From: Flavobacteriales bacterium
GTDB lineage: Bacteria > Bacteroidota > Bacteroidia > Flavobacteriales_D > CALLUQ01
Direction: 5' to 3'
Assembly (NCBI GenBank): GCA_963669295.1
Contig: OY769938.1
Location: forward strand, 722,792 to 786,791
Length of the DNA stretch: 64,000 nucleotides
In this document: in pieces, positions 39,869-57,201 of the stretch
How the letters are laid out: each line of letters opens with the position of its first letter
Numbering within the stretch: position 1 is the first letter of the stretch
Translations under genes and position numbers: made by a program
The notes under the pieces: generated by a model
Seen by the model: the letters and a program-made list of their open reading frames with translations, nothing else
The model's database searches: none
What the model was told of the DNA's origin: nothing

Positions 39869-39876
39869 TATATTTG
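39869..39876 (+). promoter_or_regulatory. Bacteroidota-type -7 promoter box upstream of the antitoxin gene
   Basis: TATATTTG matches TAnnTTTG and ends only 6 nt before ATG 39883. Confidence 0.35.
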
Positions 39877-39882
39877 TATAAG

Positions 39883-40134
39883 ATGACTGCATTAGAGTAT
39901 AAAGCACAGGCCATGGAATGGCTTGAAAGTGGTGACGAACAACTCGCGAAGATGGTTTATGTCTTCATCAAAACCATGAAAGATGAAGGCGAAAACCCTA
40001 CCATGGGACACGTAGGGCGTACTCCCATTACCCAACAAGACATCGAAGAAGGAATCAAAGCCTCCAATAAGGCTATTGAGGAAGGCGATTATATGACCAT
40101 CGAAGAGTTTGCGAAGACCCGCCCATGGAAGTAA
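39883..40134 (+). CDS. putative antitoxin of a ParE/RelE-type toxin-antitoxin pair
   Basis: Small acidic protein of about 83 aa. Its stop overlaps the toxin start by 10 nt. The assignment rests on position and size only. Confidence 0.55.
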   Translation: MTALEYKAQAMEWLESGDEQLAKMVYVFIKTMKDEGENPTMGHVGRTPITQQDIEEGIKASNKAIEEGDYMTIEEFAKTRPWK

Positions 40135-40439
40135 TAATCACCAGCCCTGTACAGCGGCAAATTAACCAGATATACGAGTTTTATTCTGAGGAAGGTTATC
40201 CTGGCTACGCTCAAAAAATTGATCGTTTATTGATCGAGCGTTCGTTGGAGTTGAAAAACTTTCCCCGTCGTGGGCAGGAAGAAGAATCCTTATCACACTT
40301 TGGAGAAGGGTATCGGTACATTATAGTAGAACGCTATTTTAAGGTGATTTATAAGATTGTTGGGGATGTCGTGTACATCTCCTATATTTTCAATACCCGA
40401 CAAGACCCTGAGAAGATAGCTGAAAGGCATTCGAGTTAA
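40125..40439 (+). CDS. type II toxin, RelE/ParE family
   Basis: 104 aa with a ParE-like pattern (QINQIYEFY, LKNFPRRGQ, YRYIIVERYFKVIYKIVGDVVYISYIFNTRQDP). Overlaps the upstream small gene. Confidence 0.7.
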   Translation: MEVIITSPVQRQINQIYEFYSEEGYPGYAQKIDRLLIERSLELKNFPRRGQEEESLSHFGEGYRYIIVERYFKVIYKIVGDVVYISYIFNTRQDPEKIAERHSS

Positions 40440-40747
40440 TCCTTTGGAGAAGATCCTACTAAGTGAAATTTAAAAGTATCTGGATCATCCTTGATGGCTA
40501 TTTTTATGTCCTTTCTGATTGCCAATAGTAATTCCACCAATAGCTTATCATGATTCCCACAGTGCTTTGTTGGGAGGTGGCTACCCGATTGTGGAAAAAT
40601 ATCCGACTGCTCACCATTAAAAGAGCTTACGAATAGGCCATCAACAGCAATGATGTAATCAATTGTGCATTGTGAGTGGATGGTGGTATAGAAAATAACA
40701 ATACAGTGATCGATCGATTTACCGAACAGTCTCATATCGGAATTCAT
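40436..40747 (-). CDS. hypothetical ORF, possibly a gene remnant
   Basis: 103-aa ORF squeezed between the toxin stop and the transposase relic. No convincing family; a GNHD tetrapeptide is the only hint. Confidence 0.2.
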   Translation of the reverse strand: MNSDMRLFGKSIDHCIVIFYTTIHSQCTIDYIIAVDGLFVSSFNGEQSDIFPQSGSHLPTKHCGNHDKLLVELLLAIRKDIKIAIKDDPDTFKFHLVGSSPKD

Positions 40748-41062
40748 AAGGTGATTGCATTAAGAGATACCGTACTGTCCAATTCTATAGTGGAAGCACT
40801 TTTTCGTGTACTGAAGTACGATTACCTCTACCGCATGGCTCTTAGCAATATGGCCGATTTAAAGCGAGCCATTCGAATGATGGTGGAAGATTACAACGAA
40901 TACCGTCCACACTATGCACTCAACGGTGGTACTCCTAACGAAGCATATCTTTATGATTTACCGGAAAGACAACTATTCAACGTCTACCTTCAAGCATCAA
41001 AACAAAAACGTATCGCCTATAACAAGGCACACGAATGCGGAAATTGTTTACAATTGATATAA
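40700..41062 (+). pseudogene. C-terminal remnant of an IS3-family transposase (rve integrase core tail)
   Basis: SNSIVEALFRVLKYDYLY...MVEDYNEYRPHYALNGGTPNEAY matches the conserved C-terminal end of IS3 OrfB (xESFFxxLKxE ... YNxxRPHxxLxxxTP). The DDE core and OrfA are absent. Confidence 0.65.
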
Positions 41063-41572: not shown

Positions 41573-41917
41573 ATGGCAAAAAAGAAAAAAGGAAAAGTGA
41601 ATGTGGTGTACTCCACCAACCCCGATTATGAGTACAGCTACGACGAGGATGAGGTACAGGAAACGCTACCCCCACAACAACAAAACTTAAAAGTGCTGGT
41701 AGACCGCAAGGGACGCAAAGGAAAGGTGGCTACCCTGGTGACTGAATTTGTAGGCAGTGAAGACGATTTGAAAGAATTGGGCAAGCAGTTAAAATCGAAA
41801 TGTGGTGTTGGCGGCTCGGTGAAGGATGGTGAAATCATGATCCAGGGCGACCATGCGCAAAAGGTAATGGACCTGCTCGTTAAAGATGGCTATAAAGTAA
41901 AACGTGTAGGTGGGTGA
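41573..41917 (+). CDS. yciH: translation initiation factor SUI1/YciH family
   Basis: About 114 aa with a Lys-rich N-terminus and the SUI1 core GRKGKVATLVTEF...LKSKCGVGGSVKDGEIMIQGDH. Confidence 0.85.
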   Translation: MAKKKKGKVNVVYSTNPDYEYSYDEDEVQETLPPQQQNLKVLVDRKGRKGKVATLVTEFVGSEDDLKELGKQLKSKCGVGGSVKDGEIMIQGDHAQKVMDLLVKDGYKVKRVGG

Positions 41918-43266
41918 AACCGAAATTACTACTCCTGCTGCTTTTATTGATTATGCTGGTGATTACCGGCCTGTACTTATTTCCCGAAAAAACTACCCGT
42001 AACTTTTATCTCGGTGGCATCCAGGTAAATGAGGCCGATCAAAACGAATGGGTTTCTACCTTGCACGACATTGGCATGAACACGGTAGAAGTGACTGTAT
42101 ATGCCAAACAAGGCGACTGGGACAGCGATAACTTTTGGTGGGATGAAGAAGATGAAGGCGTGTACAACGAGGTGCGTGCTGCCAAGGCCAAAGGGCTAAA
42201 TGTGGTGTTGATTTTACGCATTGCATTAGACCATGCGTATGAGCGCAATGCTTTTTTGTGGCACGGCATGATTATGCCTACCGACTCGATGTTACCCTCA
42301 TGGCTGTACAAGCATGAACATTTCATTATGAAATGGGCCAAATATGCCGAAGAGCAAGACATTGAAGTGCTTACCATTGGCAGTGAGATGAACGCGCTCA
42401 CAGCGACCTTCCCGATAGATGAAATTCCTGAATTGCCTGCCTTTTACATGAGTGAATTTGGCCAGCAATGGGAGCGAGAGCGCACCATGAAATTCAAAGA
42501 GCAGTTGCAAGAAAAACACTTGTGGGTACGGGGCAACGACAATTACACCGATGTAGATACTTACCTCGAAGCCAAGGCCAATACTTACAATACCTGGGCT
42601 GAACAAACCACCTATGCCGGGTTGAAAGAAAACGACCGCATAGAAAAAATGAATGCGCGTAGGGCCTTGTTACAGCAGGCATGGCTAGACCTGATTAAGA
42701 AAGTAAGGAGCGTATACAAAGGAAAATTAAGCTATGCCTCGAACTTCGACAACTACCATGAAGTAGGCTTCTGGAATGCGTTGGATATGATGGGCATCAA
42801 TGCCTACTTTCAACTGCGCGAAGCGGCTACCCTACCCCTTGCGCCTAAGGAGTTGGAACCGATCATAGAAAAGCGGTGGGCGGCCATTTTTGAAGACATC
42901 CAACAATTCAAAAAAGGAGAATACATCGACCACATGCCATTGCTTTTTACGGAGTTGGGCTATACCTACCGACGCAATTGCACGGTAGAGCCATGGGCCT
43001 CACAAGGGTTTTCGGTGGTAGGGCGCGACGGGCAGGAACAGTTGCTGGTATGGAACGAGCAGCCCAACAACAGGCAGGAGCGTGCGTTGGCCGTAAAAGC
43101 ATTGTACACCATGCTACAGCAACACCCTCAATACCGACTGGATGGCATCTTGTACTGGAAGCTCACCACCCACGACTATTTAATCAAGGAAGAGCCCTTT
43201 GTGTTGCACCTCAGCAGGCAAGCTACCGACAGTTTACAAGACGTATTGTTGGGATTTTTGGAGTAA
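41914..43266 (+). CDS. putative TIM-barrel glycoside hydrolase-like protein (clan GH-A-like), N-terminal TM/signal
   Basis: The GTG start overlaps the yciH stop (GTGA). Candidate catalytic Glu contexts are TIGSEMN and LLFTELGY. The family was not identified with certainty. Confidence 0.4.
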   Translation: MKPKLLLLLLLLIMLVITGLYLFPEKTTRNFYLGGIQVNEADQNEWVSTLHDIGMNTVEVTVYAKQGDWDSDNFWWDEEDEGVYNEVRAAKAKGLNVVLILRIALDHAYERNAFLWHGMIMPTDSMLPSWLYKHEHFIMKWAKYAEEQDIEVLTIGSEMNALTATFPIDEIPELPAFYMSEFGQQWERERTMKFKEQLQEKHLWVRGNDNYTDVDTYLEAKANTYNTWAEQTTYAGLKENDRIEKMNARRALLQQAWLDLIKKVRSVYKGKLSYASNFDNYHEVGFWNALDMMGINAYFQLREAATLPLAPKELEPIIEKRWAAIFEDIQQFKKGEYIDHMPLLFTELGYTYRRNCTVEPWASQGFSVVGRDGQEQLLVWNEQPNNRQERALAVKALYTMLQQHPQYRLDGILYWKLTTHDYLIKEEPFVLHLSRQATDSLQDVLLGFLE

Positions 43267-43407
43267 TTTTTTTGAGCATTTTGACGAGATATTTGTCATT
43301 TGATCTCATTTTGCCCTACGAGATGCACCCTCTCAAAAAAAGCAGTTTTCACCACTTATTTTTCCCTAAAAATCAACAATAATTGAACATTCAACACCGT
43401 ATTAACA

Positions 43408-43891
43408 GGAGTAGGTCAGACTATCTCCTGGAGTAGGTCTAACCTATGCCTGGGGTAAGTCCAACTATTGCACCAGGTAAGTGGAACTATTGAGCTGTAT
43501 AAGTCCAACCATTGAACCGCATAGGCAAAACCATTGGAAGGGGTAAGTCCGACCATTGTATGGAGTAAGTCCAACCATTGTATGGAGTAAGTTGAACTAT
43601 TGTTTGGGGTAGGTGGAACCATTAATGGGAGATGGTTGAACCATTAATGGGAGATGGTCGAACCATTGCACGAGGTAGGTGGAACCATTGCACGAGGTAA
43701 GTCAAACCATTGTATAGGGTAAATCAAACTATTGTTTGGAGTATGTTAAACCATTGATGAGAGATGGTTGAACTATTGCATGAGGTAAGTGGTACCATTG
43801 CATAGAGTAGGTGAAACCATTACAAGGGGTAAGTCGAACCATTGTATGAGGTAAGTAGAACTATAGCTTGGAGTAAGTCACCCCATTGCGA
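43408..43891. repeat. tandem array of 22 imperfect 22-bp direct repeats (consensus GGAGTAAGTnnAACCATTGnAT)
   Basis: Hand-phased: 22 consecutive units of exactly 22 nt with no indels. Conserved blocks GRGTARGT and AACYATTG are separated by short variable positions. The array lies between the stops of two convergent genes. Confidence 0.9.
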
Positions 43892-43924
43892 GCATTACCC
43901 AAAAGGTTTAATCTTACAGCAACC

Positions 43925-45556
43925 CTACTTAAACAACTCCACAATAGGCTGTCCGGTAGTGCCATTAGGGGCAGGAATGTTTAAGAACGCTGCTATGGTA
44001 GGCGCAATGTCGGTAATGTTTACCCGGTCAAAAATGGTTTTTTGCTGTACCCCATAGCCATACCACAACAATGGAATGTGCGTATCGTACGAATAGGCCG
44101 ACCCGTGGGTGGTACCATAGCGGGGGTAGCTGATGTAGCCCGGTTGTAGAATCACCGCCACATCGCCCGATCGTTTTTGGTTGAACCCACGCTGCACCAA
44201 TTGCTCTGGCCCACTGCTAAACTCAGTGCTGTTCAACGAAGTAGCCGACAAGGTACGTGCTACGCCATCCAACCTTACCAAAAAGCTGGCAATGGTTTCT
44301 TGCATGCGGTGCAAGCGTACGCCTTTTTTCGTCAACAACTCATGATTCAAAAATACCTGTAGGTTCGATACGTCTTTCACCCAGTCGCCTTCACCATATA
44401 CCGTATTCAAATAGCCTTTTAATGTATCTACCATCTCCTGCTGGTTGAAATAGCCAGCAGGAATGTTCAACGACTCCAGGTAAGCAGGCACACTCACCGC
44501 ACCATGATCGGCAGTAAGAAACAACAGGTAATTGCCCTGCCCTACTTCTTTATCAAGGTATTCCAATAACCGCTTGATGTCGAGGTTCAAGCGCAAATAA
44601 GTGTCTTGTGTTTCAATGGAGTGTGGGCCGTACATGTGCCCCACCTTATCGGTAGAAGAATAGCTGATAGCCAAAAAGTCGGTATGGTTGTCTTTCCCCA
44701 ACTGCTCGCCTTCTAAGGCTGCTAAAGCAAAGTCGGTAACAATGTTATTGCCCCAGGGCGACACGGTAAACAAGCTGTAATTGCCATTGGCTTCGCGCAA
44801 CTGCTTAAAGCGGTGTGGAAACACTGGCTTTTCTTCGCCTTCAAAAGTACCTTCGTAAGGGTTATCGTCGGGCAGGCTTTCGGTGTATTGCTCAATGGGC
44901 AACAAGGTGGTCCAATTGGTTTTGGCGTACTTCTCTGCCACCTTACTGTGGTTGAATTGATCGACCCACTCCGGCATTTTATCAATGTAATGAGAGCTGG
45001 TAACAAACTTGCCTTCGTTGCCTCCCAAAAACCAATAAGCTCCATTGGCAGTATTGCCTGCTGGCAAAATGGCACTGCGGTCTTTAATCGACAACGACAC
45101 CACTTTAGAACGCATGTTCGAAGCCAGGCGCAACTCGTCGGTAATGGTACTCACCAACATGTTTTTAGGCGACATGCTACCATAAGGACTGGTGGTACCT
45201 ACCGGTTGCACGGTAGTATCGGTAACGCAGTAAATCGATTGCTCGCTGTACTTGTCGTACCATTGGTTCGAAATAATACCATGTACAGCGGGAGTGGTGC
45301 CGGTGTATATAGAAGCATGGCCGGGTGCCGTGTATGTAGGCACGTAGTTGTAATGCGCATCTTTGCAGTTGGTGCCGTTGGCAATCAACCGCTTAAACCC
45401 ACCATCTTCGTACTTGTCCCAGTAACGAGCAATAAAATCGTACCGCATTTGATCAACTACAATACCCACCACCAATTTGGGTTTTCCATTGGCGATTTCC
45501 TGGGCACCTACTGTATAGGCTATGAATAGAAGGGGCAATATAAAAAGCTTGCGCAT
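43925..45556 (-). CDS. alkaline phosphatase / nucleotide pyrophosphatase superfamily enzyme, PafA-like
   Basis: Signal peptide. N-terminal KPKLVVGIVVDQMRYD, nucleophile region PTYTAPGHASIYTG, and metal site LTADHG, as recalled for PafA-type phosphatases of Bacteroidota. Confidence 0.75.
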   Translation of the reverse strand: MRKLFILPLLFIAYTVGAQEIANGKPKLVVGIVVDQMRYDFIARYWDKYEDGGFKRLIANGTNCKDAHYNYVPTYTAPGHASIYTGTTPAVHGIISNQWYDKYSEQSIYCVTDTTVQPVGTTSPYGSMSPKNMLVSTITDELRLASNMRSKVVSLSIKDRSAILPAGNTANGAYWFLGGNEGKFVTSSHYIDKMPEWVDQFNHSKVAEKYAKTNWTTLLPIEQYTESLPDDNPYEGTFEGEEKPVFPHRFKQLREANGNYSLFTVSPWGNNIVTDFALAALEGEQLGKDNHTDFLAISYSSTDKVGHMYGPHSIETQDTYLRLNLDIKRLLEYLDKEVGQGNYLLFLTADHGAVSVPAYLESLNIPAGYFNQQEMVDTLKGYLNTVYGEGDWVKDVSNLQVFLNHELLTKKGVRLHRMQETIASFLVRLDGVARTLSATSLNSTEFSSGPEQLVQRGFNQKRSGDVAVILQPGYISYPRYGTTHGSAYSYDTHIPLLWYGYGVQQKTIFDRVNITDIAPTIAAFLNIPAPNGTTGQPIVELFK

Positions 45557-45918
45557 AATCATTGTGTTTACCACAAAGGAAAAGATTTATTTTGGAACTT
45601 GCTTTATGCGGGTGTTAAGAAGCCTACCTATCGCTTAAAGATGGCTTTATACCTAGCAATAGTTACGCATTTTTACCTACGTAATATTACTCATTTTTCA
45701 ACTCACAACTCAATCGATTTTCAACTTAAAAAGCTTCTTCCTTTTCCTTAAAACTTCACAAATAAACAGCATTAACACCTGCAAACAGGTGCCAGAAGCA
45801 TTCTCAAAAACCCTTCTACATAATATCAACAACGCTTGATTTTATCGGTTTTATACCGTACATTAGTTCGAATAACGACTTAACTCATTCGATTATCGAG
45901 TAAATCCTAACTACTTAC

Positions 45919-47211
45919 ATGCATATGATGATCATCCGCCTTACATTGACTTGTTTCCTGTGCACCATCATGTATGCTGCTTCAGGACAAGGCTTAACCG
46001 ATGCCCAACTCATTGCACAGATCAACCATAACCCACCGCTGCAACAAGGGCAATTAAAAACCACCTTATTGAACCACTCGCCACTCTCAGAGTCAGTTAT
46101 GACGGCTGTAGTAGCACGCGACCCTGCTTTTTCGCCTGGGATATTAAAGGAACTGGTATTGGCCAATTCGCCTATTTCTAATGATGTGGCCATTGCCATA
46201 GGTGCAATGGAACTCCCTGACGGCATCCTCAATGCCATCATTGCTGCACAACCTCCACCAGAGGCGGGCTTTGAACTCACTGGCTCTTACGCCAGGCCCA
46301 ACCAACCCTTATCGTTGGCGAACCTCAGCACTACCGGTGCTGATGTATGGTACTTTTGGGAGTTTTACGACATCGACGAAAATGGTGTACCTACTTTGGT
46401 AGGCACCAGCAACGACTTTGAACCTACATTTTCTTTTACCACTCCCGGCACCAAGGAAGTTTACCTCATGGCCAAACAACATGGCTGGGGTGTAGGGTCG
46501 GGCAAGGAGTTGGTGGTGTACGAAAAAGGCGCCAACAAACACCAGGTATACCGATTGCGCAACAATTTAAACACCATCCTTAAAGCTACACTCAACCTGT
46601 GCACCAATCCAACCCTACTTGCCGATGTATACCAACAAGTTTTACAAACTCCTGAAAACGATTACAACCTCAAATATTCCACCCTGCTCAACAACAACCC
46701 TGGCTTGTTTGGCACCATGAAAAACTCGTTGCAAAACAATGGAGGTGATAAAAACGACCTCGACAACCTCGAGTGCATTATCAACTCGTTTAAGGTGGGC
46801 GAAGAATGGGTATATCCTTCCATCTACATCCCCTACCTTCAAGAAAATGCCATGCCCGACTTCTCCTCGCCCCCATACATTGGCATTAATGTAGAAGATG
46901 GGTTAACAGAGAAATTGCAGGTATTTAAATACGATGGGAGATGGGAAAAGGTACTATTGACTCCTCAACAATATTTGGAAGAAAACATTGTGTTTGTAAC
47001 CGTTAAAGGCAGCGCAGTATGGAAGTTATTCTTAACACGGTGCACCTGCAAAATACCACCTCCACTGGCGCACGAAATAGAACGGAAAGGCTTTCCATGC
47101 AGCCCTGGAACAGCCGGGCCGGTGATTGCGAAATGTGGGCATCTGCTTTTTGGTGCTTGTAGGTTCCAGGGAGGTGCCAGTTGTGAAGATAAGTGTTGGG
47201 TAGGCGGTTAA
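45919..47211 (+). CDS. hypothetical secreted protein with a Cys-rich C-terminal tail
   Basis: Signal peptide. The last 55 or so aa contain 7 Cys (CTCKIPPP...CSPG...KCGHLLFGACRFQGGASCEDKCWVGG). First gene of a tightly packed three-gene set. Confidence 0.5.
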   Translation: MHMMIIRLTLTCFLCTIMYAASGQGLTDAQLIAQINHNPPLQQGQLKTTLLNHSPLSESVMTAVVARDPAFSPGILKELVLANSPISNDVAIAIGAMELPDGILNAIIAAQPPPEAGFELTGSYARPNQPLSLANLSTTGADVWYFWEFYDIDENGVPTLVGTSNDFEPTFSFTTPGTKEVYLMAKQHGWGVGSGKELVVYEKGANKHQVYRLRNNLNTILKATLNLCTNPTLLADVYQQVLQTPENDYNLKYSTLLNNNPGLFGTMKNSLQNNGGDKNDLDNLECIINSFKVGEEWVYPSIYIPYLQENAMPDFSSPPYIGINVEDGLTEKLQVFKYDGRWEKVLLTPQQYLEENIVFVTVKGSAVWKLFLTRCTCKIPPPLAHEIERKGFPCSPGTAGPVIAKCGHLLFGACRFQGGASCEDKCWVGG

Positions 47212-47212
47212 T

Positions 47213-48331
47213 ATGAAAGCAATCATCACCATAATATTCATCGGCTTGCTGAGCCATGCCACTGCCCAATGGCAACTGGTCGATTCTGTATTGTTTCCTT
47301 TTCCTGCATTAAAAGATAGCTCGTTGGCTCACGGAGCCAACATGGAAGGCGATACACTATTGCTCACCAACAGTTACAACAACCATTTCTACCTCTACCC
47401 CAACAAAGACATTGCTCCACTTACCTACCTCCCCACCAACGGAAAAATGAAAAAACAGCAAACCAAAGCAGTCATTAAAGTGGGAGCTCAACTCACCCTC
47501 GTGGGGCTTTGGGGAGGCATTGGCAGTTTTACCTCTGTTGACCTGAATTCGTACAAAGTAAAGCGACGTAAGCTCACCAACAAGAAAAAACCTTTTGGCC
47601 ATAAATATGTCATGAACGAAGGCATGAGCGTACATACTCCTGCCATTTACATTGCCAATAAAAATGTGGTACTGGTACCCATCATCCCCAAACCAGGCAA
47701 ACTCGATCAGTTTTCTTCGCCAGCAGCTTATTTCAACAACGATGGCATTATTGGTGCGTATTCTCCTAAAGGCAAGCTGCAACAACTTATGGGTCAACGC
47801 GACCCCATTTACAAAACAGGCGATAAAGCACGCTATCACCACCTTAACCATTGCTCGTACAGTTACGATGCCCGACAAGAATACCTGTATGTTGGTTCAG
47901 GAGCTTCGCACCTCATTCGGGTGTACGACTGGAACAACAAAGAGGTGGCTGTATTTGGTGAGCCTGGCAATCATTTGGGCGACGTTAAAGCACCAAGGCC
48001 TTATGTTCCAACAGCGGTCATGGGCGTTGACATGGCTGAGGAATACTACACCAAATTCAAACAAGATCCTTCGTACCAATACGTATACCGCGATGCGGAA
48101 AACCAACGCACCTTTCGCACCTACCAACCTGCAGCTACTGGCGAGCACATGGAACACAAGCCCATTTGTTTACAGATTTACGATGCCAGCAACAAGCTGA
48201 TTTACGACGAGGTGCTGGATGTTGATTTTTTCAAGATCATTCAACAAAAAGGCAGCACCTATTGGGTAGATTGCCGCAACAACCAGTTTAAATCGAACTA
48301 CGTTATTTACCAATACCAATTCGCCCCATGA
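47213..48331 (+). CDS. hypothetical secreted protein (possibly beta-propeller)
   Basis: Signal peptide MKAIITIIFIGLLSHATAQ. Starts 1 nt after the upstream stop. No family recognised. Confidence 0.5.
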   Translation: MKAIITIIFIGLLSHATAQWQLVDSVLFPFPALKDSSLAHGANMEGDTLLLTNSYNNHFYLYPNKDIAPLTYLPTNGKMKKQQTKAVIKVGAQLTLVGLWGGIGSFTSVDLNSYKVKRRKLTNKKKPFGHKYVMNEGMSVHTPAIYIANKNVVLVPIIPKPGKLDQFSSPAAYFNNDGIIGAYSPKGKLQQLMGQRDPIYKTGDKARYHHLNHCSYSYDARQEYLYVGSGASHLIRVYDWNNKEVAVFGEPGNHLGDVKAPRPYVPTAVMGVDMAEEYYTKFKQDPSYQYVYRDAENQRTFRTYQPAATGEHMEHKPICLQIYDASNKLIYDEVLDVDFFKIIQQKGSTYWVDCRNNQFKSNYVIYQYQFAP

Positions 48332-48933
48332 GAATTTGTTTTACCATAGCACTGCTGCTTAGCCTGGGCACACTGCATGCCCAACAGTGCAACTACATCG
48401 TTGGCAAAGTAGAAAGCTCGCCTTGTACCCCCCTGCCCGATAGCATCATTGTTCAATTGTGCGATTCGTTGAATCAACCGTTAGGGTGTATCGATACTTG
48501 CAACGCAGAAGGGTATTTTGTAATTGCCACCAACAATACACCTGCCCTGTGTAAGCTGGTAGCCCATAAACCCGGGCATGCCTTTGCCCCCGAAGTGTGT
48601 CACCTCACCACCGAGTTGCTGAACGATCAACACACCTCTCTTACCTTACTCGATTCGTTGCCGTGCGATTCGCTGGAACAGCGCAGCCGATTTTACTCCC
48701 CCACTACTTCGCTTATCGTTACTCCGGTTCCTAATCCCAGCAACGGATGGGTACAACTGCAATTCAACCGGCCGGTAGCCAATGCCGAAGTAAGGGTGTT
48801 TAACACCTCAGGACAGCAGGTGTTGTACACCACGCAACCACACATCGATTTACAACAACAGCCCCATGGCATTTACCTGGTTACCGTACAGGTGGAAGAA
48901 CGGATGATTACCTGTAAAGTGGTGAAACGATAG
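48328..48933 (+). CDS. secreted protein with a T9SS C-terminal sorting domain
   Basis: ATGA overlap with the upstream gene. Signal peptide. C-terminal VTPVPNPSNGWVQLQF...HGIYLVTVQVEERMITCKVVKR resembles a T9SS CTD. Confidence 0.6.
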   Translation: MRICFTIALLLSLGTLHAQQCNYIVGKVESSPCTPLPDSIIVQLCDSLNQPLGCIDTCNAEGYFVIATNNTPALCKLVAHKPGHAFAPEVCHLTTELLNDQHTSLTLLDSLPCDSLEQRSRFYSPTTSLIVTPVPNPSNGWVQLQFNRPVANAEVRVFNTSGQQVLYTTQPHIDLQQQPHGIYLVTVQVEERMITCKVVKR

Positions 48934-49100
48934 CCCGTTCAATCGCTTACAACTACCGTTCAATCATTGAGCACTACCGTACAGTCATTTGCTCCCTTTT
49001 TGCGTAACTACAACGGCTTCTGCACGTACAATTAATTGGTACCATTCGGCAAAAGTAAATGGGATGGCTTCGAAAGGTACCTGGTTTGTACTAAAGTATT

Positions 49101-49150
49101 AACAACCCTCGATCTTGATACAACATGAGAAGATGGAGGGTTGTTTTTTT
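49101..49150 (+). terminator. long imperfect hairpin followed by a T-run (candidate terminator)
   Basis: AACAACCCTCGATCTT...AAGATGGAGGGTTGTT followed by T7, in the gap between convergent genes. Confidence 0.45.
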
Positions 49151-49157
49151 ATGCCCC

Positions 49158-49796
49158 TTATTCCAGATCCAGCAAATCGTTCTCCACAGCAAAACGAATC
49201 ATCTGAGCGGTATTCCTTACTGGCAACTTATCCAGTAAATTACCACGGTGGGTTTTTACGGTATGGGTTGAAATATTCAAGTACCTGGCAATGGCTTTGG
49301 AAGTCATGCCTTTGGCAAGGCATTGCAACACTTCCACTTCGCGGGTAGTAAGATCTACATGCGCCTGGGTGTTTTTCGGCTCACTGATGCCACGCATTAC
49401 TACCTTGGTCACTTCATTGCAATAGTAGTAATCGCCTGCATGGGTTTTTCGAATGGCTTGCTCCAACTCTTCGTGGGTCGATTGTTTCAACACGTACCCC
49501 AACGCACCAATGTTTAATGCCGAACGAATAAAATCTTCCTCAGCATGCATCGACAACATTACAATGGCCATGTTGGGGTATTGTTTTAACAACGGTTCAA
49601 TGAGTTCCAGCCCGCTTACATCGGGCAGGGAAATGTCGAGCACCAACACATCAGCCGGATGCTCTTGCAAAATGGTTAACAATTGCTCTCCGGTTTCTGC
49701 AACCGCGGCTACGTTAAAATCAGAAATGTCTTTGAGCAAGGCCATCAAGCCTTGCGAAAAAATGCGGTGGTCGTCCGCCAGTACAACATTAATCAT
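49158..49796 (-). CDS. NarL/FixJ-type response regulator (REC plus LuxR HTH)
   Basis: REC motifs VVLADDH, VLVLDISLPD and LSMH. LuxR HTH LTTREVEVLQCLAKGMTSKAIARYLNISTHTVKTHRGNLLDKL. Confidence 0.9.
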   Translation of the reverse strand: MINVVLADDHRIFSQGLMALLKDISDFNVAAVAETGEQLLTILQEHPADVLVLDISLPDVSGLELIEPLLKQYPNMAIVMLSMHAEEDFIRSALNIGALGYVLKQSTHEELEQAIRKTHAGDYYYCNEVTKVVMRGISEPKNTQAHVDLTTREVEVLQCLAKGMTSKAIARYLNISTHTVKTHRGNLLDKLPVRNTAQMIRFAVENDLLDLE

Positions 49797-51651
49797 TGGA
49801 TAGTGGTATATAGAGGGTGAATATTACGCCTGATCCTGCGGCAGTGTTTATCTTCATTGTTCCTCCTAGTGAGGCGACTCTACGGTCGATGTTTTTCAGT
49901 CCCAACCCTTTGCCTTGCTCCACCAATTTGGGATTGAACCCTTTGCCATCGTCTTTTATAACCAATTGCAATTGGTTGGCCTTACGGCTAATGCGGATGG
50001 TAAGGGTGTTGGCCTCCGAATGTTTCAGGGCATTGGTAACCATTTCTTGCACCATTCGAAAACAATTGATCTCTACCCGATTGCTCAACCGCTCTTCCAT
50101 GCCAAAGGTTTTGATTACTACCTTGAGCTTTCCGGTGCTGTTGATGGTGTCGGCCAAATCGCGCAGCGCTGGTACCAATCCAAAGTTGAGCAATACCGAC
50201 GATACCATGTCGTTGGAGATTTTCCGAATTTCTTCGATAGCATCGTTGAGCAGTGCCTCGGTGGTTTTGTATTGCACCGATTGCTTTTTGAGCTGATTGC
50301 CCAGGTTGCCCAGGTGAATTTTTACGGTAGACAACAGCCCGCCCATACGGTCGTGCAATTCTTGCGATACCCGCTTGCGCTCGTTTTCCTGCCCTTCCAT
50401 AATGGCGTTGAAGTATTTTTTGTCTTGCTCCAAAATCATGGTATTGATTTTGTTCTGAGCAGCGAGGTGCTGAGCGATTTTGCGTTGGCGGTAGAAGAAA
50501 AAAATCAACCCCAATAATACTAGCAGCGTCCCCCCGCCCAAATAACTATACAACAACTGCTCCCTGCTCCATTCGTTCTCCTGCTTAAGGAGTTGATTGT
50601 CTTGTTCTTTTTTTTCTGTTTGGTACCGAATGTGCAACTCATTGACTTTACTTTTCACAGCCTCATTAAGTACCTGCCCCTTGATGTATTGATACCTCCT
50701 GAAATATTTTAATGCCTTTTCATAATCGTTGAGACTCAAATGATATGCATAGAGGTTTTCGTTTATTTCAATTCTTCGGCTCTGATCGTTCAACACCAAT
50801 GCCAAAGAATCAGCCAATAACAAATAGTTGAGTACTTGTTCATGCGCATTGAGCTCTTTATACAACTCCGCCAAATCGATGCAACAAGGAATTCTGTTTT
50901 TGATGTTATTGGTAAGGATATACTGTTGCTCTGCAGCAGAATAATAGTGCAACGCACTATCCAGTCTACCATAAACATGATGGATCAATCCAACCGCTAA
51001 CAATACATCCGCGCGTCCTTCTACCTTCCCTATTTGAATGTACCACTGGTCGCTTTGAAAATAGCATTCCAAAGCCATATCATCGTTGTACAGATAATAG
51101 TGCGCATTGCCTATGTTATACATCGCATCCGCCATCCAGGCCGTATCATTGGCCAGTACCATTTTATCAAATGCCTGCTCGTAATGCTGCAATGCCAATT
51201 TATATTGCTGCTTAGCTCCAACATCATTCGTATCTCGCTCTAAAAATATTCCTTCATCCAAATAGGTATTGCCAATGTCCATTAAGCAACGGCCAACATC
51301 CACCAGCCAACCATGCCTTTCTCGAATCCGCAGTGCCTCATAAAATGCTTCATGCGCTAACTTCCAATTGCCCATCTTCTTCCAGGCCATTCCTTTTCGT
51401 TGATACCCTGTTGCCAACAATCGCTCATTGCCCAATTGCTCAGCTTTTTTGATAGTAAGGTTGGCATAATACAATGCGGAATCGTTGTTGAACAACCGGT
51501 ATTCAAACGACAATTCCGCATACAAGGAAGCCAGCACCGAGTCGTTTGGGGCTGTACGACTCCATGCCAGCAAGCTGTCTTTTTTGGTAACCGATGCCTC
51601 AGCGACAAGGGCAAACAGCAATAATAGATATAGTAATAAGTACCTATGCAA
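49789..51651 (-). CDS. sensor histidine kinase with an N-terminal TPR-like sensor region (HisKA_3 plus HATPase_c)
   Basis: Signal peptide; about 350 aa of TPR-like repeats; one TM helix (LLVLLGLIFFFY). H-box ERKRVSQELHDRMGG, N-box MVTNALKHS and G-boxes DDGKGF/GLGLKNI. The stop overlaps the response-regulator start by 8 nt. Confidence 0.85.
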   Translation of the reverse strand: MHRYLLLYLLLLFALVAEASVTKKDSLLAWSRTAPNDSVLASLYAELSFEYRLFNNDSALYYANLTIKKAEQLGNERLLATGYQRKGMAWKKMGNWKLAHEAFYEALRIRERHGWLVDVGRCLMDIGNTYLDEGIFLERDTNDVGAKQQYKLALQHYEQAFDKMVLANDTAWMADAMYNIGNAHYYLYNDDMALECYFQSDQWYIQIGKVEGRADVLLAVGLIHHVYGRLDSALHYYSAAEQQYILTNNIKNRIPCCIDLAELYKELNAHEQVLNYLLLADSLALVLNDQSRRIEINENLYAYHLSLNDYEKALKYFRRYQYIKGQVLNEAVKSKVNELHIRYQTEKKEQDNQLLKQENEWSREQLLYSYLGGGTLLVLLGLIFFFYRQRKIAQHLAAQNKINTMILEQDKKYFNAIMEGQENERKRVSQELHDRMGGLLSTVKIHLGNLGNQLKKQSVQYKTTEALLNDAIEEIRKISNDMVSSVLLNFGLVPALRDLADTINSTGKLKVVIKTFGMEERLSNRVEINCFRMVQEMVTNALKHSEANTLTIRISRKANQLQLVIKDDGKGFNPKLVEQGKGLGLKNIDRRVASLGGTMKINTAAGSGVIFTLYIPLSND

Positions 51652-52087
51652 TCCTCACTCTACCTCCTCCCCCATCTTTTACGACTACTGCTTTTCTTCG
51701 AATTGTTTTTGTTTCTCCGTCTTTCTTATCGTACACAACAATATCTATCGTCTTCTTACACTCTTCCGTACTCCGATTTGCATCCCCGCAATTGGGCAAT
51801 GAATCTTCTGCTTTGTAATACCTGGTATTCAACACCTTGAGTGTTGAGGTACCCGTATCAGCATGTTTAGTAATGGAAATGATGAGGTAATAACTCTCTG
51901 CATGTACCCAATGTCCTGTTCCCGGAGTTTGCGAAGCCGGAACCTGGCTCACCCCCATGCCCTGGAGTAACCTTGAATCTTTGGATGTTTCGTATTCTTT
52001 AAATTTCTTATTGGGGTCATCAATATCTACAATAAGCTGCTCTGTTACTTTGTCAAAGCTTAAGTTGGTAATATCATATTCTGCCAT
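51644..52087 (-). CDS. hypothetical 147-aa cytoplasmic protein
   Basis: ATG start 19 nt after the caspase-like gene stop. Its stop overlaps the kinase start by 8 nt. No signal peptide and no family recognised. Confidence 0.5.
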   Translation of the reverse strand: MAEYDITNLSFDKVTEQLIVDIDDPNKKFKEYETSKDSRLLQGMGVSQVPASQTPGTGHWVHAESYYLIISITKHADTGTSTLKVLNTRYYKAEDSLPNCGDANRSTEECKKTIDIVVYDKKDGETKTIRRKAVVVKDGGGGRVRIA

Positions 52088-52106
52088 AACTAGTCGTTGT
52101 TAGAAT

Positions 52107-52919
52107 TTAATCGTTGTACATAAAAGTTCTCTTAAAGGGCAAGCGAGTATCTACACGCCCCTCATGGTAGTGCCAAACCGAAGACAATTGGTGTGGTCGA
52201 TTAGGATGAAACATGTACCGTTGAACATGCTCAAAGAAATCGTAATAATCATCCTCTGGCTCACGGTTCTTCCAGGCGCACAAAAGTGCCTCCGTAAAGT
52301 ATGAAAACCGGCTCCCCTCATAGGTTTTTGAATCTTCCTTGCTTCCCGACATTACTACCACACTGGCATCAACTTTCTTTCGCGGAATTCTTGGCCTTGA
52401 AAGAATTTCATCATACAACGACTTGTGTTTTTCAAATACATTTGGCTTATATTCTTCATCTGGGTCCACCAATTCAGTTTCAGGAGTTACACCTATCGTT
52501 GGCCCACTGTTGCAAGCATCCGAAATCAATACAATCTTTACTCCCTTCTTAAACAAACTGGCCAACTCCCAAAGCTCAAAATGAAACAACACCCGATCAT
52601 ACATGCACCATCCTTCATCCTCCAGCTCACTGTTTTCTACATCAAACTCCTTTTGAACACCCTTTCCATGCCCACAAAATGAAAGCACCAACATGTCCTC
52701 CGCTTTCATTTTTTTCGCCAGGGCTCTTAGCCTAACTTTTAATGCTGAAGTAGTTGCTTCATCATACAACAAAGGCTCCGACTTATAACACAATCCTTTA
52801 AATAAATCATGCAAACGCATCGCACCTGGTTCAGCGGTAGCCCAACCCAATGAATTGGGATAATGCTCCCTATCCACATTGTTCAGTCCGATGTTGATGA
52901 CATAACCTTTTTTTCCCAT
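52107..52919 (-). CDS. caspase-like (peptidase C14 / orthocaspase) domain protein
   Basis: C14 layout: YVINIGLNNV (p20 start); catalytic His context MLVLSFCGHGKG; catalytic Cys context KIVLISDACNSG; p10-like VVVMSGSKEDSKTYEG...FSYFTEALL. No signal peptide. Confidence 0.75.
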   Translation of the reverse strand: MGKKGYVINIGLNNVDREHYPNSLGWATAEPGAMRLHDLFKGLCYKSEPLLYDEATTSALKVRLRALAKKMKAEDMLVLSFCGHGKGVQKEFDVENSELEDEGWCMYDRVLFHFELWELASLFKKGVKIVLISDACNSGPTIGVTPETELVDPDEEYKPNVFEKHKSLYDEILSRPRIPRKKVDASVVVMSGSKEDSKTYEGSRFSYFTEALLCAWKNREPEDDYYDFFEHVQRYMFHPNRPHQLSSVWHYHEGRVDTRLPFKRTFMYND

Positions 52920-53170
52920 AATCTTTCGTTTTTAAGTGGTTCATAAATTTGTACTCCACAAATGTCACGAAAGCAAGCACACCGAATTACAAACATTTGG
53001 GCGATATTCTGCCTCCCTATAAAGGGGGAGTTCTTCCTCCCCATTTCTAAGTAGAATTACTTATAAAATACGCATAAACACGGTGTTTTTAATAAATATA
53101 ATAGTCTCTACCAAAATTCCAACTCTACCAGCCACTGTACTTATTCCTTCAAAATCACTACCTTTCTTTT

Positions 53171-53701
53171 ATGTACCGCTTCCTCTTTTTATGGTTGCTG
53201 CTTGCAGCGTGTACCACTGTCCCCCAACCTACCTGCGATGCGGGGGAAGCCCCTGCATTTTATACCATTGATGAAGACCTGGGCTACGTGATTTACCACG
53301 ACCTGAAAACAGCACAAGCCTGCTCGCGCACCAGCGGCAAACCCATACTACTTATGTTTACCTGTTGGGCCTGCATGGGCAATCGTGCCGGAGCAGAAAG
53401 CCTTTATACCCACCAAAAAGTACGCACCCTCATCAACGAAAACTACATCTTGCTGTGGCTGTATGTAGACGACAAACGTTTATTGCCTCATCCCAGCGGC
53501 ACCCAGCTCAACGGTCAACCCATCACCACCATTGGCCATCAAAACCTCACGCTCGAGATGACCCGATTCGATAACAATAGTCAACCGTTGTATGTGCTTG
53601 TGGATGCCGATCTCAATGCTTTGAGCGCCCCCCTGGGCTACCTCCCAAAAAAAGAACACTACCGCTTCGTTGATTTGCTGGAGCAAGGGCTCAAAGAGTA
53701 A
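53171..53701 (+). CDS. thioredoxin-fold lipoprotein (DUF255/thioredoxin-like)
   Basis: Lipobox LLLAACTT. GKPILLMFTCWACMGNR carries a CxxC-like motif (CWAC) at the position expected for a thioredoxin-fold active site. Confidence 0.5.
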   Translation: MYRFLFLWLLLAACTTVPQPTCDAGEAPAFYTIDEDLGYVIYHDLKTAQACSRTSGKPILLMFTCWACMGNRAGAESLYTHQKVRTLINENYILLWLYVDDKRLLPHPSGTQLNGQPITTIGHQNLTLEMTRFDNNSQPLYVLVDADLNALSAPLGYLPKKEHYRFVDLLEQGLKE

Positions 53702-53737
53702 GCAAAAAAGCATCAAAATGCTTACCTTGTAACAGTC

Positions 53738-54199
53738 ATGGAAACACTGGAAGAAAAAAGCTTGTACGACGAAGTAGTTTACCAGCAATGCCTTGAACGC
53801 ATTAATGAACTTACTGCCAACACCACCCCACAGTGGGGCAAGATGAGTGCTGCACAAATGTTGAGTCACTGTGCCGAGATTCAAGAGGTGAGCAATGGCA
53901 AGTCGTTGGAAAACACCCCTTTCATCATCAAGCTCATTAAAGGCGTGATTCGCAACATGGTGGTGAACCACAAGCCCTACAAGCACAGCACCAAAACCCA
54001 CCCGCAATACCGCCAACAAGATCCACGCGATTTTGAATTGGAAAAAATCAGGCTACTGGCTGCCCTAGAGCAATTTCAAAACGATAAAGCGGAAGGCGTA
54101 GCACATGCGCACCCCCTGTTTGGGCCGATGACTGAAAACGAAAGAGGCTGGGCCATGTACAAACACCTCGACTACCATTTAACGCAATTTGGCGTATAG
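53738..54199 (+). CDS. DinB-superfamily/DUF1569-like protein
   Basis: 153 aa, helical, with PQWGKMSAAQMLSHC at the N-terminus and HLDYHLTQFG at the C-terminus. This pattern is recalled for DUF1569/DinB-like proteins. Confidence 0.45.
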   Translation: METLEEKSLYDEVVYQQCLERINELTANTTPQWGKMSAAQMLSHCAEIQEVSNGKSLENTPFIIKLIKGVIRNMVVNHKPYKHSTKTHPQYRQQDPRDFELEKIRLLAALEQFQNDKAEGVAHAHPLFGPMTENERGWAMYKHLDYHLTQFGV

Positions 54200-54323
54200 C
54201 AACGTATTAACCCTTGCTTTTACCGAAAAACTTGCTAATTTTCATCAGTTTTTAAAATAGTTATGCATTACCATACGTTTTATAAAAGAGCAATTGTGTA
54301 ACTTAGTAAGAGTACATCGTAAC

Positions 54324-54482
54324 ATGGAGAAGAAAATCAAAGTAAAAACCGGCAAACGAAAAATCACCGTCAAGCGATCAGCGGTCAAAAAAGCGGTTTC
54401 AAAAGCTCTTGCAGATAAGGAAGCGCAGGATACAGAAGAAGCTAAGGAAGCTAAGGCAACTGAAGAGGCTAAGAAAGAGTAA
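54324..54482 (+). CDS. small Lys-rich N-terminal / acidic C-terminal protein
   Basis: MEKKIKVKTGKRKITVKRSAVKKAVSK then DKEAQDTEEAKEAKATEEAKKE. The stop overlaps the next ATG (TAATG). Coding status is inferred from the coupling only. Confidence 0.4.
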   Translation: MEKKIKVKTGKRKITVKRSAVKKAVSKALADKEAQDTEEAKEAKATEEAKKE

Positions 54483-55105
54483 TGGCCACCGCTACCTACA
54501 ACGACTCGGTCTTCATCAACTGTCCGTTCGATGATGCCTATACCGATTTTTTCAATGCCCTGGTGTTTACCATTTACCGCTGCGGCTTTTACCCGCGCTG
54601 CGCCAAAGAAGAAGACAACGCCACCCAGGCGCGCATCAATAAAATTGTAAAGATCATTAAGAAGTGTCGTTACGGCATTCACGACATTTCTCGCATAGAG
54701 TTGAACCCGGCCGGTTACCCCCGCTTTAACATGCCTTATGAGTTAGGATTATTTTTTGGCGCGCAACGCTATGGCAATGCCAACCAGAAAAAGAAAAACG
54801 CGCTGATCCTTGAGCGCGAACAATTCACCTATCAACAATACATTTCCGACCTCAATGGCATTGATACCCGAGCGCACAACAACAACATCAATACCCTTAT
54901 TCAGTTGGTGCGCAACTGGCTCAACCAGGCCTCGCGTCGTACTACCATTCCAGGGCACAACATCATCATTGCCGATTGGGAAGAGTTTTACGATCAACTG
55001 CCCGGCCTACTTACCGAAAATGGGCTAGACATGCCCCACCTTACCTACAACGATTTGTGTGTATTCATTGAGGTGTGGATTTCAAGAAAGATCGCAGAAA
55101 GCTAA
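54482..55105 (+). CDS. uncharacterised protein with a TIR / nucleoside 2-deoxyribosyltransferase-like N-terminal Rossmannoid pattern
   Basis: SVFINCPFDD (strand 1), IVKIIKKCRYGIHDIS (helix-strand) and NMPYELGLFFG (conserved Glu) follow the pattern of the TIR/NDT-like superfamily. The C-terminal 90 or so aa are unknown. The assignment is by eye only. Confidence 0.4.
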   Translation: MATATYNDSVFINCPFDDAYTDFFNALVFTIYRCGFYPRCAKEEDNATQARINKIVKIIKKCRYGIHDISRIELNPAGYPRFNMPYELGLFFGAQRYGNANQKKKNALILEREQFTYQQYISDLNGIDTRAHNNNINTLIQLVRNWLNQASRRTTIPGHNIIIADWEEFYDQLPGLLTENGLDMPHLTYNDLCVFIEVWISRKIAES

Positions 55106-55106
55106 C

Positions 55107-56561
55107 CTACTGTGGTGCTCCTATACAATTGGTAAAAGTAATGTTGCTTAAATCGGTGCCCGTAAAATCGGCTCCGGTTAAATCGCAATTGATGAATTCT
55201 ACCGTACCATTTACCGCACAATTGACAAACTTAGCACTACGCATTTTGGTGCCTACCGGATGGTTGATACTGGTGCCAAAAGTAACGTTCCCAAAAAAGC
55301 GGCTGCCGCTGAAGTCGGTTTCCGTATAATTGCCCAATACAAAGTCGCAGTTTTCAAAATTGCCTTCAAACTTTGCCTTGATGTATTGCCCATAAATGAA
55401 TTCTACATTAATCATAGAAGAACCAAAGGGCGCCACAAATTCCGTGTTGTTGAAGAATCCACTGATGAATTGCACCTTGTTAAACGAACATCCATTGAAG
55501 CGGGTAGGTACGCCATTCTCTAAATTGCGGTAGGCCGAAAGTCCTTTGATGGTAGAATTAAAAAAGCGACATCCATTGAACTGCGCTCCATATGATGCAT
55601 TCGATAGCACCTGGGCACTGTCGAAATAACATTGATTGAATTGAGTGGCAAAAAAGCGATTGTACCGCCAGTAACCTGCATTGGTATGTTTTACGGTAAC
55701 CCGCTCCCAATTGGTACCTGCTTCAAATCCGCATTCAATCATGTACGAATCGTGCAACTCTGTTTGGCTCCAATTGCTATACTTCATGTGCATCTTTTCG
55801 AACCGGCAGTTTTTAAAGAAGTTGCCAAACACCGTTTGGTTTTTCATCTTGGTTCGATAAAAATCAACTGCCTTGCTGCGCGGGTCAGCTCCAACAATAT
55901 TGCTGTTGGCAATGTGCGTACCTTCAAAGGTAGTGCCGCGATAGCTGCCCCCCGACAGGTCGACATATTCCATCAATTTGCTTTTTATTACCATGCCATC
56001 CCAAAACATGTGGCGCGCTGCCAACAACAAGTCGAATTCTTTTTGCGACAACAAATCCTGTCGTACAATGGGTTGCAACCCCCAACCGGGAAGTGGGGAA
56101 ATGCCAATGGTTCCAAAAATGCCGATGCTTCCTGTGCTACCACTACCAACAATGGTATCGGCCGGCATTACAGGTATGTGTTGAATGTCGTGCAGCTCCC
56201 AGTTTTCCAATACCAGGTAATAGGTATTTGGGTTGGCAGCATGATACCAGGCCACCCGTACCATGCGGTTTACCAATGGATCGAGGCTGTCTTTACGCGA
56301 CACTTCCAATTTAATCCAATCGCCTTGCTGGTCGAGGATGCGATCGTTGCCCAGACCTTCGCTGTAAAACGCTGCCCTTGAAATGGGTTGGTATTGCGTT
56401 AAATCATCTGGAGCATCCACTTCACTGCCCGACAATGAAGTGTCGATATTGGCAAGGTGCTCACTTTGTTCGTTCAATTCCGAGCGGATGGAAATCAATT
56501 CTTCGGTAACGCCACAGCCTATAAGAAGTAATGCAGCAACAGCGGTTAGTAGTGGTTTCAT
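55107..56561 (-). CDS. lipoprotein with C-terminal pentapeptide-repeat region
   Basis: Lipobox LLLIGCG. The C-terminal half is rich in pentapeptide-type repeats (FNGCSFNKVQF, FENCDFVLGNYTETDFSGSRF, FINCDLTGADFTGTDLSNITFTNC). Confidence 0.7.
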   Translation of the reverse strand: MKPLLTAVAALLLIGCGVTEELISIRSELNEQSEHLANIDTSLSGSEVDAPDDLTQYQPISRAAFYSEGLGNDRILDQQGDWIKLEVSRKDSLDPLVNRMVRVAWYHAANPNTYYLVLENWELHDIQHIPVMPADTIVGSGSTGSIGIFGTIGISPLPGWGLQPIVRQDLLSQKEFDLLLAARHMFWDGMVIKSKLMEYVDLSGGSYRGTTFEGTHIANSNIVGADPRSKAVDFYRTKMKNQTVFGNFFKNCRFEKMHMKYSNWSQTELHDSYMIECGFEAGTNWERVTVKHTNAGYWRYNRFFATQFNQCYFDSAQVLSNASYGAQFNGCRFFNSTIKGLSAYRNLENGVPTRFNGCSFNKVQFISGFFNNTEFVAPFGSSMINVEFIYGQYIKAKFEGNFENCDFVLGNYTETDFSGSRFFGNVTFGTSINHPVGTKMRSAKFVNCAVNGTVEFINCDLTGADFTGTDLSNITFTNCIGAPQ

Positions 56562-56658
56562 AGTATTGGTTTTTAGCGACCAACAATGTAACCATTATCC
56601 ACTTACCAACATGTAATTTTCGACGTATGGAGGAAAAACTTAGGTGATTGAACAGAGA

Positions 56659-57201
56659 CTATTGTTTCCAGTTCTCGCGACGAACAGCGTATACCAACTC
56701 ATCTTCCAGCACCCCGTTCTTGATCAGGATTTTATCGAAACGTCCTTCCAATACAAACCCGGCTTTCTCCAACACCCGTTGCGACGCAATATTTCTACCA
56801 AATGGCATGGCGAAAATGCGGGTGTACTCCCAATGCTTAAATCCATAATCCACTATTTGAGCAATGGCATTTGAAACAATGCCCTGCCCCCAAAATGGTT
56901 CTGCCAGCCAATAACCCAGCTCGGCATTGAGGCGATGGATGTCTTCCATGGGATGCAAACCAATGCCTCCCACTGCTTCGCCATTCACATCGATGGTAAG
57001 GATGTTGGCAGGAGAGTTCTTAGTGGCTCTACCAATAAAACCCTCCCCATCTTTTCGCGTGTAAGGATGAGGAAACCCATCGCGCAAATTATCAGCAATA
57101 TGCTTGTTATTGGCGTACTTTACCAGGCTGTCAACATCATCTAACGTCCAGGGGCGGAGGGTAAAGGAGGTGCTCAACGTTTGATGCTTTTCTCGTACCA
57201 C
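56659..57201 (-). CDS. GNAT family N-acetyltransferase (RimJ/RimL-like)
   Basis: LRPWTLDDV at the N-terminus; acetyl-CoA region WGQGIVSNAIAQIVDYGF; C-terminal N..S.RVLEKAGF. Apparent GTG start overlapping the upstream gene end, so the true start is uncertain. Confidence 0.8.
   Translation of the reverse strand: MVREKHQTLSTSFTLRPWTLDDVDSLVKYANNKHIADNLRDGFPHPYTRKDGEGFIGRATKNSPANILTIDVNGEAVGGIGLHPMEDIHRLNAELGYWLAEPFWGQGIVSNAIAQIVDYGFKHWEYTRIFAMPFGRNIASQRVLEKAGFVLEGRFDKILIKNGVLEDELVYAVRRENWKQ

Follow-up and report, generated by a model that had tools for sequence, protein, structure and literature searches.

Tandem arrays of short, phased direct repeats are known from plasmid replication origins and from partition centromeres. 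The gamma origin of plasmid R6K carries seven 22-bp iterons and the chlamydial plasmid carries four 22-bp repeats, while parC of R1 (11-bp repeats), parC of pSK41 (20-bp repeats) and tubC are tandem-repeat partition centromeres. Centromeres of this type consist of contiguous, phased direct repeats of 10-24 bp, along which an adaptor protein polymerises on the DNA, and they sit immediately upstream of their par operon. To our knowledge, the known origins carry far fewer than 22 contiguous repeat copies. A different kind of array, BrickBuilt, has been described in Porphyromonas gingivalis (Klein et al. 2015, PMC4596501), where spacer-free tandem units of 23 nt occur in up to 22.8 copies and always in intergenic locations. 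The BrickBuilt unit has conserved and variable positions, with the variation falling in patches of 2-4 nt, and does not match any Rfam family; the arrays are flanked by a leader and a tail with IS5-like terminal inverted repeats, are present in ~19 copies per genome, contain 0-6% insertions or deletions (indels), have measured promoter activity and change in copy number between strains (PMC4596501). Here we describe a tandem array at positions 43408-43891 of a 64,000-nucleotide stretch of the genome of a Flavobacteriales bacterium (contig OY769938.1; the whole stretch is referred to below as the window). We tentatively read it as a lineage-specific, chromosomal, non-coding minisatellite, the units of which are possibly kept as two-part sites bound by a protein whose gene is located elsewhere in the genome.

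The array (plus strand, which is G-rich) comprises 22 head-to-tail units of exactly 22 nt with the consensus GGAGTAAGTCGAACCATTGCAT, all in a single register and with zero indels, and thus reproduces the division into 22 units from position 43408 that was made in a first-pass annotation of this DNA. Tandem Repeats Finder reports a period of 22 over the region together with higher-order periods of 44, 110 and 132, of which the period of 132 is the top-scoring, with a score of 385 over 2.5 copies and 78% matches. The individual units agree with the consensus at 13-20 of the 22 positions and the mean pairwise difference among them is 7.8 of 22 positions. Unit positions 4-6, 8-9, 13-14 and 16-18 are near-invariant, with position 14 being a C in 22 of the 22 units, and all four bases are found at positions 10, 11 and 20-22. 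The per-position profile hence displays the two conserved blocks, GTARGT at positions 4-9 and AACYATTG at positions 12-19, and the substitutions at fixed positions that had been reported in the first-pass annotation, the free positions being 10-11 and 20-22 along with 1 and 3; the near-identical pairs of neighbouring units that it quoted are also present. The centres of the two blocks are ~9-10 bp apart, i.e., about one helical turn, and the 2-3 nt between the blocks vary.

The order of the units in the array is not random. Units that are adjacent (lag 1) and units that are six apart (lag 6) are more similar to each other than they would be under a random order of units (permutation p of 0.0017 and 0.0016, respectively), and the similarity stays above random upon correction for the minimum over all lags (p of 0.02). 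A higher-order repeat is recognizable at 43552-43875 (plus strand), where a 132-bp block of six units is present in ~2.5 copies with 78% identity (score of 385): units 7-12 resemble units 13-18, and a third copy begins with units 19-21. The similarities at lags 1 and 6, taken together with the 132-bp period, therefore indicate that both single units and a six-unit block were duplicated as the array grew, confirming the local duplication that had been suggested earlier. Head-to-tail units with such a signature of local duplication are the behaviour of a minisatellite. Whole units would have multiplied at the locus itself, through slippage during replication or through unequal recombination, with single units likely to have been duplicated first and the six-unit block later.

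A purely neutral minisatellite would carry the same signature. Under this alternative, which was also raised in the first-pass annotation, the array is junk produced by slippage or unequal crossing-over, tolerated in the gap between the convergent genes with neither a binding factor nor a function, and the conserved blocks are a by-product of the shared ancestry of the units. The clear duplication signature and the higher-order repeat are consistent with it, and so are the units at the left edge (units 0-5; 43408-43539, plus strand), which are on average further from the consensus and match it at 13-18 of 22 positions. However, the way in which substitutions are distributed over the unit argues against this alternative, and we consider it somewhat unlikely. 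Parsimony on a neighbour-joining tree of the units counts at least 77 substitutions, of which 13 lie in the ten core positions as against 35 expected, and in the same count the variance across positions exceeds that of a uniform model (p of 0.02); core positions have 0-2 changes, whereas the free positions show all four bases. Since the classification of positions as core or free was post hoc in this count, an independent comparison was made, in which the per-position variability among edge units 0-5 was set against the differences between partners six units apart within units 6-21, differences that arose after the block duplication. Variability in the edge units predicts the later differences between partners, with a Spearman coefficient of 0.57 (permutation p of 0.003), and the 12 positions that are quiet at the edge (core) have 18 later differences while the other 10 positions (free) have 38 (binomial p of 6e-4), these p-values being somewhat optimistic because some units enter two partner comparisons.

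Independent substitution events in two distinct parts of the array have thus avoided the same positions, which argues for sequence constraint and upholds the position-specific conservation and the rigid period described in the first-pass annotation. The absence of indels points in the same direction. The bacterial substitution-to-indel ratio is roughly 20:1, and at this ratio ~4 indels would be expected alongside at least 77 substitutions, with a probability of ~0.02 of observing none. Comparable arrays fetched from other genomes (L035, L018 and L067) do contain register shifts. The position-independent divergence and occasional indels of a neutral minisatellite or variable-number tandem repeat are hence not what is seen in this array; the neutral alternative holds as far as local duplication is concerned and is disfavoured by the constraint test. 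We conclude that GTARGT, AACYATTG and the 22-bp register are maintained. Their maintenance could be due either to selection or to preferential amplification of intact units.

The array occupies the interval between two convergent genes, at a distance of 141 bp from the stop codon of a gene for a GH113-like glycoside hydrolase (41914-43266, plus strand; 450 residues; Pfam PF22612 with an E-value of 1.6e-20) and 33 bp from that of the alkaline phosphatase gene pafA (43925-45574, minus strand; 549 residues; NCBIfam NF042991 with 778.6 bits against a cut-off of 650, and Pfam PF01663). The flanking stop codons at 43266 (plus strand) and 43925 (minus strand) are where the first-pass annotation placed them. 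The left flank (43267-43407; 141 bp) is unique and mildly A+T-rich (GC of ~0.38), with no other copy in the window, and the right flank (43892-43924; 33 bp), which extends from the array to the pafA stop codon, is likewise unique. Proteins that are 100% identical to both flanking products (P0121, the GH113-like protein, and P0001, PafA) are encoded on a single NCBI/ENA contig of 5,895,558 bp. The nearest homologues of both proteins in a collection of 5.8 billion proteins are only 52-57% identical, which marks the host lineage as an isolated one.

Downstream of the orthologous GH113 gene in two relatives there are only ~110-160 bp and then a different gene, with no array and no pafA. In the relative L127, whose GH113 protein is 52% identical, genes for CrcB, PAP2, Obg, adenylate kinase and a phosphoribosyltransferase come immediately after GH113. 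In the window, GH113 and Obg are separated by ~16 kb of other genes, starting with the array and pafA (43267-59330). Given the short spacer and the different neighbour of the GH113 genes in the relatives, the array is part of a lineage-specific segment. The absence of the array downstream of the orthologous GH113 genes is also what a neutral minisatellite could show, as is the orphan nature of the locus, for which plasmids, phages, viral contigs and JGI metagenomes yielded no homologue, and the lack of associated genes in Pfam and NCBIfam scans of selected open reading frames (ORFs) from 21 to 60 kb of the window, to which all statements on scanned ORFs below refer.

We predict that the units are binding sites because the two blocks are kept, the spacer between them is free to vary and the 22-bp register is never broken. 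The first-pass annotation had proposed reiterated protein-binding sites, and the conservation pattern is indeed that which such sites would show, although the iteron origins and partition centromeres to which it likened them are not supported, as discussed below. Each unit would be a two-part site of a sequence-specific DNA-binding protein whose gene lies elsewhere in the genome, and the array would line up as many as 22 of these sites in phase, in a gap between convergent genes that presumably tolerates extra DNA without harm. The bound array might act as a roadblock or an insulator between the convergent transcription units, or might titrate its factor. Any such effect would most plausibly be local, with insulation of the two convergent transcription units being foremost among the candidates.

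Several observations weigh against binding sites as the reason for the maintenance of the units. No binding protein was found among the ORFs scanned, and the products of the two unannotated genes to the right of the array begin with what, by eye, resembles a signal peptide; no relatives of these two proteins were found in the PDB. Only one array is present within the 64 kb viewed. A 17-nt motif spanning both blocks, GGTAAGTNNAACCATTG, was searched over the window with up to two mismatches and has 14 matches in the array and 2 elsewhere, with ~0.17 expected by chance in the whole window; one of the latter is within the listed ORF at 11713-14118 and the other is in sequence that looks coding by eye. 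At another stringency, the matches outside the array number 3 versus 1.1 expected. Outside the array, the 64 kb thus shows no enrichment of single unit motifs, the counts there fitting chance. Also, the constraint statistics are moderate and come from 22 units that are related to one another, and the conservation of the blocks could stem from the requirements of unit amplification and not from a function for the host. As for the shape of the DNA, no intrinsic curvature is predicted: under a dinucleotide wedge model, the array comes out less curved than the average of the window.

The non-coding nature of the array, asserted in the first-pass annotation, is correct: the period of 22 is not a multiple of 3, similarity between units reaches its minimum over all lags at lag 3, and the array is overlapped by just two short ORFs (68 and 71 residues). 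It was also right to set aside a clustered regularly interspaced short palindromic repeats (CRISPR) array, as the units are all alike with no spacers between them, and no Cas family is found in the Pfam and NCBIfam scans of the ORFs tested. Two further candidates were rejected, viz., a mini-ORF (ATG-GRG-TAR) at each unit junction, since the start codon is present at under half of the junctions by eye, and Pho-box or OmpR-type half-sites, since one half of the unit bears no relation to the other.

The array could instead act after transcription, within the 3' untranslated region of the pafA (minus strand) or GH113 (plus strand) mRNA, with the RNA binding or sequestering a protein through its 22 motifs. 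No canonical intrinsic terminator is found before the array for either convergent gene, and read-through transcription into the array is therefore plausible. The fold of the minus strand is more stable than that of shuffled sequences (z-score of -3.0), with sub-segments having z-scores of about -2.1 to -2.4. However, shuffling breaks up the partial palindromes that a repeat contains and inflates such scores, and the minus-strand value is hence weak evidence; the z-score of the plus-strand fold is 0.1. A candidate hairpin, CCAUUGUAUGG, does not persist from one unit to the next as judged by eye, without a formal covariation test, and a rigid 22-nt register is not required for an RNA function. 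No Rfam family matches the array even at E-values of up to 5, and neither a sigma-70-like promoter motif nor the Bacteroidota TAnnTTTG motif is found in 43100-44100. A structured non-coding RNA, which the first-pass annotation had listed among its alternatives, would be expected to have its own promoter or terminator along with a conserved structure or a known family, and thus gains little support here; we regard a role at the RNA level as improbable. Long-range stems can be drawn for the last part of the GH113 gene together with the left flank, where 43244-43267 pairs with 43358-43381 and, nested within it, U7GAG at 43267-43276 pairs with CUCA7 at 43332-43341; their stability is not above that of shuffled sequences.

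Phased direct repeats of 17-22 bp are a hallmark of iteron origins, and the 22 units of 22 bp in one register, with their strict phase and two-block anatomy, resemble iterons or tandem-repeat centromeres. The array might hence be considered the origin or the partition centromere of an integrated or secondary replicon, and the A+T-rich flank fits this idea. The companions that define such elements are, however, missing. No Rep, ParA, ParB, ParR or integrase gene is detected among the ORFs scanned, so that neither an adjacent cognate Rep gene nor an adjacent operon for a partition NTPase and adaptor accompanies the array. The first-pass annotation had seen no rep or par gene nearby, which holds for every ORF scanned; the sole 'Par' match is a ParE-family toxin (40125-40439), which is a member of a toxin-antitoxin pair and not a partition protein, and is preceded by a small ORF (39874-40134) that is possibly its antitoxin. 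No DnaA box (with up to one mismatch) is present between 41074 and 49180, the left flank is only mildly A+T-rich for an unwinding element and no switch in GC skew is found at the array. The locus is on a 5.9-Mb contig amid housekeeping genes, and blastn searches initiated with the array against 72,556 plasmid and 50,697 phage records did not find any match. The number of contiguous copies, 22, is also well above that in known origins. We therefore do not file the array as an iteron origin or a centromere, as the defining companion genes are absent, and we consider a replicon-type function highly improbable.

The resemblance to BrickBuilt raises the alternative that the minisatellite is carried on, or derives from, a non-autonomous mobile element with many copies in the genome, in which AACCATTG would be the relic of a transposase-binding end. 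BrickBuilt has the same anatomy in the same phylum, other Bacteroidota genomes repeat one array family at several loci, and a remnant of an IS3-like transposase (rve_3; 40676-41062; 128 residues), i.e., a decayed insertion sequence, is located 2.3 kb upstream of the array. Among the IS5-family ends reported along with BrickBuilt, that of ISPg1, GAGACCATTGCA, contains GACCATTG (PMC4596501). This GACCATTG is also the core of the ACCATTG-type arrays of Bacteroidota described below, and the unit in the window carries GAACCATTGCA. We treat the resemblance to the IS5 end as a lead to a possible relationship, as it extends over 8-10 nt and could be due to chance. Further, the spacer-free, intergenic tandem units of about 23 nt that typify BrickBuilt are present here, whereas a leader and a tail ending in IS5-like terminal inverted repeats (TIRs) are not: the segments 43267-43407 and 43892-43924 are not linked by any inverted repeat, and the 64 kb do not contain the leader, tail or unit a second time. 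TIR-like matches of the type GAGACCWTTGCA are not enriched in the window (13 versus 10.2 expected) and lie solely inside units, and the nearby transposase remnant is from a different family and is not adjacent to the array. A mobile origin thus seems quite unlikely.

Searches for related arrays elsewhere returned other arrays of similar design. A two-unit pattern found seven loci in JGI metagenomes, all unrelated, and none in IMG/VR. A looser pattern of four ACYATT cores at 22-bp spacing identified at least 118 loci in a collection of species-representative genomes; the array family of the window is not among the 118 matches listed, which are other 11- or 22-bp arrays. Among the matches listed, 70 of the 118 loci are from Bacteroidota, and a unit with GACYATTG[T/A]AT is seen in 11 of these 70 arrays (L013, L031, L032, L035, L045, L067, L073, L076, L080, L083 and L101) and in 0 of the 48 from other phyla, an enrichment that is merely indicative since it depends on the scan order. 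This sequence forms an 11-bp unit in Rikenellaceae and several Bacteroidales, or one half of a 22-bp unit in Chitinophagaceae and Hanamia; for example, L045, L073, L080 and L067 have the unit GACYATTGWAT. Among the Bacteroidota arrays as a whole, 22-bp units are seen in L032, L035, L074 and L022, for example. The second half of the unit in the window, AACCATTG[C/T]AT, has the ACYATTG.AT core in common with the 11 Bacteroidota arrays. No homology at the level of alignment is found between the array of the window and the fetched arrays, and a profile search of the fetched loci gave weak matches, of which the best is a four-unit array in L107. In this locus, from a SAR324 metagenome-assembled genome (MAG), four 22-bp units, GAACCAAGTCCAACTATTGCAG, are located at L107:7644-7731 and have 16 consecutive nt (AAGTCCAACTATTGCA) in common with unit 2 of the window. 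Arrays of 22-bp units, GAGTAGCTCCGCACCATTTATG, are also seen at L074:3390-3641 (a MAG labelled Chitinophaga pinensis) and L022:8-183 (an unclassified Bacteroidetes MAG). Their unit begins with GAGTAG and shares GGAGTAG and ACCATT with the unit in the window, spaced 1 nt wider.

The GACYATTG[T/A]AT arrays are intergenic and located beside unrelated housekeeping genes in varied contexts. They are absent from IMG/VR, no transposase is found among the ten flanking ORFs tested, and literature searches with the 11-mer cores returned nothing relevant, only unrelated primer sequences. The array in L074 lies between convergent ORFs and downstream of a tRNA-like sequence, as judged by eye, and that in L031 is similarly placed between convergent ORFs. 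In five cases, one array family occupies two loci of one genome (L045/L073, L013/L080, L057/L058, L055/L072 and L053/L075), and in most of these pairs the similarity is essentially limited to the array, with little or no shared flank. The pair L055/L072 has similarity reaching ~450 bp and looks like a dispersed element. These arrays could, speculatively, constitute an undescribed class of chromosomal cis-elements of Bacteroidota, in which phased 11- or 22-bp units with an ACCATTG core would be polymerisation platforms for a conserved DNA-binding protein, either of the host or derived from an insertion sequence, and might act as transcription roadblocks, insulators or chromosome-organising sites. 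While such a class is doubtful at present, the array described here would gain interest if the ACCATTG-core arrays of Bacteroidota proved to be a common protein-binding element.

Beyond the immediate flanks, the scanned ORFs encode ordinary chromosomal functions including peptidases, a methyltransferase, a two-component system and Obg, among others, and the rve_3 transposase remnant and the ParE toxin are the only items among them that are reminiscent of plasmids or mobile elements. A SUI1-family gene precedes the GH113-like gene, and a sorting domain of the type IX secretion system (T9SS) is encoded in a nearby gene; this domain and the named homologues assign the organism to Bacteroidota. 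Tandem Repeats Finder identifies two other short tandem repeats in the window, one with a 24-bp unit in 2.2 copies at 45646-45698, upstream of pafA, and the other with a 27-bp unit in 2.3 copies at 54416-54477.

If the units are binding sites, as we tentatively propose, then the array naturally provides 22 phased sites for a DNA-binding protein of Bacteroidota and a ready-made probe with which to find that protein. It would also be a possible insulator on the chromosome, separating convergent genes, in a phylum for which little is known about transcription termination and nucleoid proteins. Were it no more than a minisatellite, it would serve as a hypervariable marker for strain typing and is of a kind known to cause breaks in assemblies. 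Either way, labels such as origin, centromere or CRISPR array should be avoided in its annotation.

On comparing the published descriptions, BrickBuilt is the closest described analogue of the array. Both are from the same phylum, have units of similar length (23 and 22 nt) without spacers, are intergenic, combine conserved with variable positions and have no Rfam match; the array in the window differs in having no inverted ends, no indels and no promoter motif, and in being present in one copy in the 64 kb. The other 11- and 22-bp arrays of Bacteroidota are likewise intergenic and head-to-tail with units of 11 or 22 bp, but do not share the first half of the unit in the window, GGAGTAAGT. Unlike tandem-repeat centromeres, the array has no par operon beside it among the ORFs scanned, and unlike plasmid iterons, it is chromosomal, without an initiator gene or a DnaA box, and has three times more copies, all of which are contiguous. 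With plasmid iterons it has in common the phased 22-bp direct repeats, and its two sub-blocks would suit a monomer with two domains. By analogy, the array may work in the manner of iterons and centromeres, through cooperative binding of a protein along its phased sites.

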